Below the pieces are notes generated by a model. It searched no databases, had not been told where the DNA came from, and worked only from the letters and a program-made list of their open reading frames with translations. A program made the translations under genes and the position numbers. A stretch of 2,504 bases of DNA from Naegleria gruberi (lineage: Eukaryota), in assembly GCA_000004985.1 (NCBI GenBank), contig GG739258.1; one strand, 5' to 3'. Below are positions 306-2,504 of this stretch, one piece after another; the stretch's first letter is position 1, and each line of letters begins with the position of its first letter.

Positions 306-349
306 ATTTCCCTCCTTTCAAACCAGCCCGCCAATACCGTTACGAATAA
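263..349 (+). other. Small ORF of 28 codons encoding a highly basic peptide, MAKSRKMGKKCKVRDFPPFKPARQYRYE. Possible upstream ORF or chance ORF.
   Basis: ATG 263-265 sits in the strong context AAAAAAATGG. A second in-frame ATG at 281-283 has the similar context AAAAATGG. The frame stops at TAA 347-349. The ORF is below the length cutoff of the supplied track. Whether it is transcribed is unknown. Confidence 0.12.
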
Positions 350-416: not shown

Positions 417-2504
417 ATGAACACTAACAAGGGTATCGTAGAAAAGTATATTGAAAGTTGTATTGGTTTTATTGAAGATGAAAATAATATTTCTACCAAC
501 AACCGTATCAGAGTACCTCGTAAGCTTTTGGAAAAGTATGACAATCAGGGTTATGGTGTAGAAAGCCAAGTTGCTATTAGCCAAACAGTTGTATCTGTTA
601 TGGAAGATTACATTGTTGATAAAACAAAGAGTGCTCCAATTCACAAAATTCCTCTCCAATTAAACAATCCAAAGTCCACCAAAAGAACAGTTCAAAGAAT
701 TAAGAAGCAGAATAAGGTGTTCATCAAAGACATTCCAAATGAACTGTCTAACTTCTCCAAATTCGTTGGTGCCAAAAGCAAGGACTTGTCTACCTCTATT
801 GATGATATTCTTGCTGAAGGAAGACAGTGTTGTCCTCAACTATTTGACTATCTTAAAACCATTTGCTTGAAGCCTTCTGAAAGAAAGCAAATTCCTGATA
901 GAGTGAAGAACATTCTATCTGTGTGTGTAATGTTATTGGCTAATGCCAGCAACAGAATGGCTACTTGTTTTCCTACAACTCTAGGTGCTGTTCTTTACAG
1001 CAATGGAACAAGTCAACAACTTGTTGATTTGCTTTGCAAGATGGGTATTACTTCATCATACAACACAATTACCAATCAATTAATGGGCTATATTAATAAG
1101 AGACAAGAAGAGTTCAAGAGAAAAAGCAACAATCCCAAGTACTTGCCAATTACCATCTCTGACAACTTCGAAAGGACTGTCAGTGGTAAGTTTTCAATTC
1201 ATAATACCCAAAAGGAAATGATTTCCACCATTACTACACTTGCTCTTGCTCCAGAAGTTGATTTTGATTATAACATTGTTGGTCTTAATGAAGCATTGTT
1301 GTTCTACAGAATGGACTATCCTAAAGCAGAAAGAGAAATGACACAATACGTAGAAGGTATTGTAAAGTCCTTCATGTTGAATTCTGAAAGTTACCTTACA
1401 TCCAATACTACTCACAAAAGAGACTCGTATTTGGAATACGAGTGTTGGCCTTCTTTCTTGGGCAGTGGTAATTCAAATGAGGCAAAGACCATGTATTACA
1501 CTGAACACATCAAACAAGATGTGATGAAAGAAGGTGTTGTTGTTGGTGATCAAGTATTTGCTGCTTTTGTATTAAGAGCTCAACGTCATAGAAAGTTACA
1601 AGAATTCTGGGTTGTTCCAGGTGATTGGCATTTCCATCAAGCCATGATGAGAGCTACTTTAAGACATGGCTGGTTTTTCTTTGCAAGCCTTGTTGAACTA
1701 CTCCAAAGTCGTGTCTCGATTGAAGGTAAAAACTACAACGATACACGAGTATTCCTGGAAACATTTGTTCATGGCATGAATCAATGGCTGATTCAATTAT
1801 TCTCCAACTCCTGTTGCTTTGATTCAGATCCTTCCAAGTGGGATAAATTAATCCAAGAAAAATTCTTCTTGTTTCTCCACAGAATCAGAAGTGAATCTCA
1901 AACTCTTGATGCTTTAATTCATCTCATGGAACTTGGTATTTGTTGTATTATGTTCAAACATAACACAAGACACAACAAAGGAGAAGATCAATACTTCTTG
2001 TACCTGAAAGCTCTGCCATTATTTAATGTTACAAATTCAAGAAATTATTTCCAATTAACTTCATACCATATTAATCAACTTACCTATATTAGAGAGTACA
2101 GCTCAGAATTTTACCAATTCATTGGTAAACACAGAAATTTACCAATATCTCAAAGCAAGTCTGGTAGATCCACAAGATTTGTAGCAGCAGATGAATTTAT
2201 GGAAATGAATCATTCATACATCGAAAATTCCAATATCAATGTTGATCCACTAACATTTCCACTAAACATCCAAAAGAGAATTTATGCTAAAGCACTAGAG
2301 AGAATTGCCATTTCTGGTAACGTGGAACACACTAAGCATTGGCAAATCCAACAAGGACAAATGTATTTCGTTCAAATTATGCTTGAAAGATTGGGTAATA
2401 CTTACTCAGAGGTTATTAATAAGGTTGGTTTTACAGACTGTGTTGTCGATATTTTCAATGGTGAGAAATTCAACAAAACAAAGAAGCAAAGAAGAGGTGT
2501 GGAT
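417..2504 (+). CDS. Large protein-coding gene, 3'-partial: 696 codons inside the window with no stop before the window edge. Product unknown (hypothetical protein). Single exon as far as can be seen.
   Basis: ATG at 417-419 is the first ATG after the in-frame TGA at 363-365. The frame was verified codon by codon to GAT at 2502-2504 with no TAA, TAG or TGA. Codon usage is strongly biased and yeast-like (AGA, GGT, CAA, TTG, CCA, TCT, GCT; GGT far more frequent than GGA, GGC or GGG). The A-rich start context is aaaaaataattaacATGa, with A at -3. Three antisense ORFs over this span are short and AT-driven. There is no GTATGT or TACTAAC intron signal. The translation begins MNTNKGIVEKYIESCIGFIEDENNISTNNRIRVPRKLLEKYDNQGYGVESQ and the window ends ...VGFTDCVVDIFNGEKFNKTKKQRRGVD. 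Confidence 0.85.
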   Translation, partial: MNTNKGIVEKYIESCIGFIEDENNISTNNRIRVPRKLLEKYDNQGYGVESQVAISQTVVSVMEDYIVDKTKSAPIHKIPLQLNNPKSTKRTVQRIKKQNKVFIKDIPNELSNFSKFVGAKSKDLSTSIDDILAEGRQCCPQLFDYLKTICLKPSERKQIPDRVKNILSVCVMLLANASNRMATCFPTTLGAVLYSNGTSQQLVDLLCKMGITSSYNTITNQLMGYINKRQEEFKRKSNNPKYLPITISDNFERTVSGKFSIHNTQKEMISTITTLALAPEVDFDYNIVGLNEALLFYRMDYPKAEREMTQYVEGIVKSFMLNSESYLTSNTTHKRDSYLEYECWPSFLGSGNSNEAKTMYYTEHIKQDVMKEGVVVGDQVFAAFVLRAQRHRKLQEFWVVPGDWHFHQAMMRATLRHGWFFFASLVELLQSRVSIEGKNYNDTRVFLETFVHGMNQWLIQLFSNSCCFDSDPSKWDKLIQEKFFLFLHRIRSESQTLDALIHLMELGICCIMFKHNTRHNKGEDQYFLYLKALPLFNVTNSRNYFQLTSYHINQLTYIREYSSEFYQFIGKHRNLPISQSKSGRSTRFVAADEFMEMNHSYIENSNINVDPLTFPLNIQKRIYAKALERIAISGNVEHTKHWQIQQGQMYFVQIMLERLGNTYSEVINKVGFTDCVVDIFNGEKFNKTKKQRRGVD

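Follow-up and report, generated by a model that had tools for sequence, protein, structure and literature searches.

What is encoded by the long open reading frame (ORF) that takes up most of a small orphan contig of Naegleria gruberi, and does it belong to the host or to a mobile element? Naegleria is a deep-branching eukaryote and a model for early eukaryotic biology. The stretch of DNA analysed here, which we call the window, is an entire contig of the N. gruberi assembly (GG739258.1, 2,504 bp), and the ORF occupies positions 417–2504 of its plus strand. We put the probability at roughly one half (0.5) that the window holds the left end and the first part, about 80%, of the single gene, encoding a putative transposase, of a low-copy DNA transposon bearing terminal inverted repeats (TIRs), whose protein is very distantly related to fungal proteins carrying the domain DUF6589. 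Behind this reading stand a real gene, a family relationship, a set of conserved acidic residues and, around a paralogue in N. gruberi, both inverted and sub-terminal repeats. The main rival is a family of host genes, which we weigh below against the same observations.

Coding status and extent of the gene

The frame 417–2504 translates into 696 codons with no stop and is 3'-partial. Its ATG at 417 is the first one past two in-frame stops, at 354–356 and 363–365. At the window's A+T content of 64.8%, the per-codon stop frequency is 0.074, i.e., one stop expected per ~14 codons, and the probability of 696 stop-free codons arising by chance is ~6e-24; the other five frames reach at most 92 open codons. 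This is a genuine protein-coding gene, and an initial annotation made from the letters alone was right to describe a 3'-partial ORF of at least 696 residues and to call it clearly coding. It also gave the correct cause for the absence of the gene from the ORF list supplied with the sequence: the frame has no stop within the window, and ORFs that run off the end are left out of that list.

The product is 100% identical to XP_002668159.1 (EFC35415.1), deposited as "predicted protein, partial [Naegleria gruberi]". The description of the ORF as unrecognised stands insofar as the protein has no functional name, and fails insofar as it was already in the databases and missing only from the supplied list. 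The same identity rejects a yeast origin, and the yeast-type attribution of the initial annotation was wrong; the gene is heterolobosean. The GenBank model of XP_002668159.1 ends at residue 681 (…DIFN), directly before GTGAGA (2460–2465), which was presumably predicted as a splice donor in the GenBank/JGI model. This intron call is doubtful, since the reading frame beyond residue 681 remains open up to 2504 and since its K-F-N..QR loosely resembles the K-Y-N..QR of related proteins. Gauged against the 881 residues of one such relative, P0002, the window protein probably lacks its last ~150–200 residues, including the acidic C-terminal tail.

Relatives of the window protein

Searches of Pfam, NCBIfam, PHROGs and PDB sequences with the window protein gave nothing significant and returned only sub-threshold noise (GGDEF_GdpP, PRK07535, phrog_7919, SAPS), and the earlier remark that the protein fits no familiar family therefore holds at the standard thresholds of these four collections. 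Profile searches of the PDB with two family alignments (A2 and A10) found no match. Word-indexed protein searches returned only the query or its own input rows; one of them was probably swamped by the acidic low-complexity tail of P0002. Relatives were recovered by an exhaustive phmmer scan of 1.84 billion cluster-representative proteins with the window protein as query, which gave 13 proteins, among them three close relatives and nine weak matches.

The three close relatives are 28–33% identical to the window protein. P0002 comes from metagenomes and matches with an E value of 8e-88 at 32% identity, and P0003 (704 residues), encoded on a contig labelled as metagenome, matches with an E value of 4e-75 at 33% identity. 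The third, P0004, is the N. gruberi protein XP_002668292.1 (358 residues), aligned over the C-terminal half only (E = 6e-16). The nine weak matches (P0005–P0013, E = 1e-4 to 1e-3) are short proteins from metagenome contigs, all of which align to residues 112–282. No confirmed relative came from scans of metagenome contigs with a Naegleria-type profile (A2) and a fungal DUF6589 profile (A5), or from a scan of viral contigs. The family is small and patchy. The gene is still not the lineage-specific orphan that the initial annotation had offered as one candidate, having paralogues (P0003 and P0004) in the same genome, a metagenome relative (P0002) and remote homology to fungal DUF6589 proteins.

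These relatives also bear on the idea that the frame arose by chance, is a pseudogene or results from faulty assembly, and yields no functional product. A tiny contig and a partial gene might be expected in that case, as might a frame break found near the 3' end of the P0003 gene. However, relatives at 28–33% identity keep the entire length together with the invariant motif residues, which indicates purifying selection, and this, with the chance estimate given above, effectively refutes the idea.

The link to DUF6589

The wider family was identified from the surroundings of two of the weak matches. At the loci of P0006 and P0012 (L004 and L005), the next ORF downstream belongs to the Pfam family PF20231 (DUF6589), with E values of 1.5e-66 and 3.2e-65 and scores of 221–225 bits. 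P0006 and P0012 are probably the first exons of intron-split fungal genes, with the DUF6589 ORF as the following exon. When the Naegleria-type alignment was compared by hhalign with the joined fungal proteins, the match had a probability of 98.1% (E = 8.4e-14) over window residues 134–422, with most of the signal coming from the helical domain that precedes the Pfam DUF6589 model. In three MAFFT alignments (A6, A9 and A10), window-type and fungal proteins are collinear end to end with the order of motifs kept, and the order within the DUF6589 region (GD, W..G.WH, K/R-H/N-x-D, D...E..N/H..IK) is found in both. PF20231 itself (gathering threshold 27 bits) gave no match even at E <= 10 to the window protein, its core fragment, P0002 or P0003. 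Since profile homology is present and the Pfam model gives no score, the window protein is, judged by these comparisons, a remote relative of DUF6589-containing proteins and not a member of the Pfam family.

The fungal proteins and the window protein have a homologous N-terminal domain and a common order of motifs (P..L, LG..L...G.....ID.L...G.T.SY.T, DN.E, GD(Q), W...G.WH, D...E..[NH]..IK), at an identity of only 13–24%. Unlike the fungal DUF6589 genes, the Naegleria type has blocks of its own (ECWPSFLGxGxSNE, GDWHFH, HLMELG, RNYFQL) and no introns. At a further fungal locus (L006), the frame downstream encodes LYLVYGDQLTVGRVR, the counterpart of VVVGDQVFAAFVLR in the window. The 160-residue ORF that the gene caller placed after P0013 at this locus (P0018, ~1400–1900) was read in the wrong frame. 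The gene really continues in frame 0 (…LYLVYGDQLTVGRVRACKQRR) up to a break, a sign that this fungal copy may contain more introns or be decaying.

The DUF6589 match names a family, not a mechanism. A literature search on DUF6589 found no assigned function, and one on PF20231 gave nothing relevant. The one paper in the searched library to name DUF6589, a rust-fungus pan-genome preprint, lists it among enriched domains, beside Tet-like oxygenases, and states no function for it. A confident match to a characterised family, the result that in the initial annotation would have made this an ordinary annotated gene, has thus not emerged, DUF6589 being itself without known function.

Conserved residues and predicted architecture

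Residues 1 to ~104 of the window protein are poorly conserved. They are followed by a helical domain at residues 105–238 (729–1130, plus strand, as are all the features below), in which P140, L193 and G197 are conserved and the predicted local distance difference test (pLDDT) score from AlphaFold2 (AF2) is 70–86. This domain, with the motif LG..L...G.S...ID.L...G.T.SY.T, is the part most clearly common to the window protein and the first exons of the fungal DUF6589 genes. We infer that it is helix-turn-helix (HTH)-like and putatively DNA-binding; no HTH family was among its Pfam matches.

Beyond this domain, acidic residues are conserved at three places in the window protein family, first D, then D, then D/E. 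The initial annotation had reported a protein with no signature, which is correct for curated libraries and overlooks this pattern. The candidate first catalytic residue is D249 (1161–1163) in the motif SDNFE (1158–1172), which ends a beta-strand at residues 244–248 that both AF2 runs predict with low confidence. Sequence comparison places the conserved block ECWPSFLGxGxSNE between SDNFE and the next motif, VGDQVF (1542–1559). Here G377-D378 are invariant, D378 is the candidate second catalytic Asp and a helix is predicted to follow; the fungal proteins have GDQLT or GDALT at this place. The motif PGDWHFH (1617–1637) contains the invariant G402, W404 and H405 and corresponds to fungal G-L-W-H. 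It is followed, after W404-H405, by a helical insertion of ~170 residues (residues ~404–571, pLDDT 60–82) that lies between the second and third acidic residues. In the last motif, AADEFMEMNH (2184–2213), D592 and E596 are invariant, and E596, on a predicted helix, is the candidate third catalytic residue; the fungal counterpart reads E-I-D-R-A-V-E-L-L-N..IK.

Residues invariant in all alignment rows that cover them include E109, P140, L193, G197, N250, G377-D378, W398, G402, W404-H405, D592 and E596. For D378, D592 and E596 this means six rows out of six, and D249 is kept in every covering row except that of the fragment P0007. The window protein is predicted to be overwhelmingly helical, and both AF2 models, which are of low confidence, place D249 at a strand end, D378 immediately before a helix and D592/E596 on a helix.

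Inverted and sub-terminal repeats around a paralogue

Candidate element ends were found around P0003, whose gene lies at 473–2587 of L003, a 6.2-kb contig labelled as metagenome (ERZ929261). L003 is nevertheless N. gruberi DNA: the product of a neighbouring P-loop/GTPase-like gene (4347–5474) is identical at 375 of 376 residues to N. gruberi XP_002669180.1 (NAEGRDRAFT_75841, on a 158.6-kb scaffold). P0003 has no NCBI counterpart at 90% identity and is either unannotated or else absent in the reference strain.

An inverted repeat surrounds the P0003 gene, with CTAGATCGCGGGAAGT at 264–279 and its reverse complement at 2996–3011 (15/16 match). The right repeat ends 1.3 kb upstream of the GTPase-like gene. 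The composition-weighted score of the repeat is 29.5, against 15.6 +/- 2.5 in shuffled sequences, and none of 1000 shuffles reaches it; by match count alone, ~2% of shuffles equal it through A/T-run artefacts. Just within the left arm come three plus-strand copies of the motif A(5-8)N(1-4)CAA(A)GTC[AG], with a period of ~29 bp, and just within the right arm there is a single copy on the minus strand. The motif is found nowhere else in L003, and the count of four compares with 0.05 expected. The unit so delimited (264–3011) is 2,748 bp long, and the P0003 gene is the sole long ORF within it. By analogy with known elements, this one-gene layout is the classic one for a small autonomous DNA transposon.

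Two observations on L003 concern the end of the gene and its neighbour. In the region 2546–2600, P0003 reaches its stop at 2587, yet homology to the acidic tail of P0002 continues in another frame, at 2562–2897. The break could be a frameshift, a 40-nt intron (2550–2589) or a metagenome assembly error, and the L003 copy may be slightly decayed; a 35-nt intron was also tried as a way of mending the frame and was rejected for its wrong phase. The proteins of 49–57 residues that share a 90% cluster with the N. gruberi GTPase-like protein are encoded on a bacterial contig (L009) and are an unrelated, low-complexity clustering artefact.

The 220 bp upstream of the window ORF follow the same order as the left end of L003: CTAGAT…CGCTGAAGT (196–226), a GGCC box, A-rich/CAAAGTC repeats and a block at 332–372. 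The first of these, CTAGAT...TAGACTAACGCTGAAGT, is a candidate left terminus with weak similarity to the left inverted repeat of L003, a tentative assignment, as the right end falls beyond the contig. The sub-terminal motif of L003 is present as two direct repeats, AAAAAAATGGCAAAGTCA (257–274) and AAAAAATGCAAAGTCA (287–302), 28 bp apart, against 0.014 expected for a pattern that was defined after seeing the data. The promoter-proximal block, CAATACCGTTAC..TTAAATAAATT.GAGAAATTT (332–372), is common to L003 405–449 and includes a CCGTTA core that resembles a Myb site. In local alignments of the window against L003, the proximal block has a z score of 5.8 (0/300 shuffles) and the repeat region one of 3.2 (4/500). 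Ordered non-coding motifs that are kept though the proteins are 33% identical are hard to explain as promoter drift and easy to explain as the cis sites of a mobile element.

If the window gene does encode a transposase, the helical domain at residues ~105–238 would recognise the sub-terminal repeats A(5-8)N(1-4)CAA(A)GTC[AG] and so confer DNA binding. The core, with D249, D378 and D592/E596, would adopt an RNase H-like fold and bind metal ions, and its catalysis would consist of cutting and rejoining DNA at the inverted repeats in the cut-and-paste style of DDE (Asp-Asp-Glu) enzymes, making the element mobile. The long helical insertion at residues ~404–571 would separate the second acidic residue from the third. 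Of the three candidate explanations offered by the initial annotation, the evidence favours that of an uncharacterised selfish element whose protein this is.

Comparison with known transposons

Several features of this proposed element are familiar from DDE cut-and-paste transposons. Like them, the L003 unit has one ORF between short inverted repeats and also carries sub-terminal repeats. As in eukaryotic DDE transposases, two Asp residues are followed by ~215 residues and then D/E, and a conserved His comes after the strand that follows the second Asp, as far as the low-confidence AF2 models can place it. The E-x-x-[N/H]-x-x-I-K helix of the window family also recalls the "E-S-x-N-x-x-[IL]-K" motif of Mutator/IS256.

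No sequence or profile match links the protein to any of the named superfamilies that we compared. hAT, P and MuDR transposases, like those of Kolobok and Dada, carry a C/DxxH signature (PMC9587614). The window protein has D403-W404-H405, with one residue between D and H, at a similar place with a different spacing, and the fungal DUF6589 rows have G-L-W-H, with neither C nor D. Unlike this group, the window protein has no zinc finger and no THAP domain, and unlike hAT and Mutator elements, the L003 unit has no obvious 8–9-bp duplication in its flanks. Kolobok elements, which have TTAA target-site duplications and 5'-RR..YY-3' termini, have been reported from Naegleria (PMC9587614). Membership in Kolobok was rejected, as the L003 flanks (...AAAAC|CTAGATCG and CGATCTAG|TAAAA) are without TTAA. 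Kyakuja-Dileera-Zisupton (KDZ) and Plavaka elements are fungal transposons that were first recognised as uncharacterised multicopy proteins (PMC12730594), and they occur in the same kind of fungal genomes as the DUF6589 proteins. Membership here was rejected as well, as Pfam scans of the window protein, P0002, P0003 and the fungal ORFs found no transposase family. Neither the window nor L003 contains a TET/JBP gene.

The imperfect fit raises the alternative of a selfish-element protein that is not a DDE transposase, such as a nuclease or recombinase of another kind, or a protein with an accessory or DNA-binding function, in which the acidic residues serve some other role. The overwhelmingly helical prediction, the low confidence of the AF2 models, the differing C/DxxH spacing and the lack of an assigned function for DUF6589 are all compatible with such a protein. 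We nevertheless think it unlikely. Eukaryotic DDE enzymes classically show the order predicted here: an Asp at a strand end, an Asp before a helix, W-H, a long insertion and a helix bearing D/E with a basic residue after it. Moreover, no other long ORF lies between the inverted repeats of L003, so any mobility function that the element encodes must come from the P0003 gene.

Transposon or host gene

A more serious competitor is that the gene belongs to a heterolobosean host family, ordinary or domesticated, and encodes a nuclear, non-mobile protein of ancient common ancestry with DUF6589. The upstream blocks would then be promoter elements, and the L003 repeat would be regulatory or due to chance. 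Several observations weigh against the transposon, and a number of these are what a host gene would lead one to expect. No known transposase family was matched by sequence or by PDB profile search. A single TIR-bounded copy was seen, that in L003, and each paralogue is apparently single-copy in the protein collection, with its ORF intact. There was no multi-copy evidence and no empty site among the sequences examined, the N. gruberi assembly lying outside the searched data.

The locus of P0002 (L001/L002) also speaks for a host gene. Its intact 881-residue ORF is packed tightly between ordinary-looking genes, 169 bp away upstream and 20 bp downstream, with neither an inverted repeat nor the sub-terminal motif, and the protein itself has an acidic tail and, in KRKRR, a basic stretch of the kind typical of nuclear proteins. 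This copy may have been domesticated or have lost its mobility; alternatively, some members of the family may be host genes. A CCGTTA/TAACGG core, similar to a Myb-binding site, is found upstream of all three full-length genes (window 337–342; L003 411–416; L001 361, 391 and 420). P0002, which lacks the inverted repeat, has this core too; it may be a promoter element common to the genes and not a transposon site. Around the fungal genes at L004 and L005, no convincing inverted repeats were found.

Other points against the transposon concern the evidence from L003 and from the DUF6589 comparison. The pattern of the sub-terminal motif was fixed after the data had been seen. The L003 unit is without a clear target-site duplication, its flanks (...TAAAAAAC|CTAG and CTAG|TAAAATCA) agreeing at 5/8 positions; the palindromic CTAG at both tips, or the TA inside it, could itself be the duplicated target. 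In the comparison with the DUF6589 region, the GD…WH segment alone reaches only E = 0.006, and the value for the C-terminal half by itself (E = 0.34) lacks significance.

We regard the host-gene explanation as a real possibility, less likely than the transposon given what it leaves unexplained. A GC-rich 16-nt inverted repeat brackets P0003 exactly, with an oppositely oriented motif inside each arm, and promoter logic fails to account for this arrangement. Paralogues whose proteins are only 33% identical would not be expected to keep the order of their upstream sequence over 220 bp. The distribution of the family is extremely patchy over 15 billion proteins, and its copies lie on very small contigs or in sequence without annotation. 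The window itself is an orphan contig of 2.5 kb, and the one with P0004 measures 5.7 kb; such small contigs, together with the missing NCBI counterpart of P0003, fit repeat-like or masked sequence.

Flanking sequence in the window

The plus strand of the window also contains, at 3–194, the 3' end of a second ORF (…GDDKWETNKKETTTTNPTKSTSTATTTVAAASAVDSQSNV*), which shares the frame of the main ORF and is rich in CTG/ACT triplets (Tandem Repeats Finder, 137–171). Pfam gives no match to it, and it is probably part of a flanking host gene. Its stop codon (192–194) lies 1–2 nt from CTAGAT, the possible left tip of the element. Scans of the window with Rfam, tRNA and bacterial promoter and terminator models were empty or irrelevant.

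Implications

Should the transposon reading be true, it would provide the first functional hypothesis for DUF6589, that of a transposase, together with the first element boundaries, and it would add another mobile-element lineage to those of Naegleria. We suggest, tentatively, a broader generalisation in which DUF6589-type proteins are the transposases of an unclassified superfamily of eukaryotic inverted-repeat DNA transposons found in fungi and heterolobosean amoebae. The N. gruberi elements (this window and the L003 unit) would then be the first of these whose ends are defined, by an inverted repeat of 16 bp, by sub-terminal CAA(A)GTC repeats and possibly by CTAG or TA as the target site. 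Repbase or Dfam may already list DUF6589-type proteins within some named superfamily. If the host-gene explanation is the true one, the finding would amount merely to a lineage-restricted gene family of modest interest.

On the transposon reading, the family would extend from fungi to Heterolobosea, which would imply either great age or horizontal transfer. The discovery of an empty site or of an RNase H-like fold would give DUF6589 a function and possibly establish an unclassified transposon superfamily. If the transposon reading holds, an anonymous "predicted protein, partial" on an orphan contig would become a testable object, with three candidate residues and defined DNA motifs.

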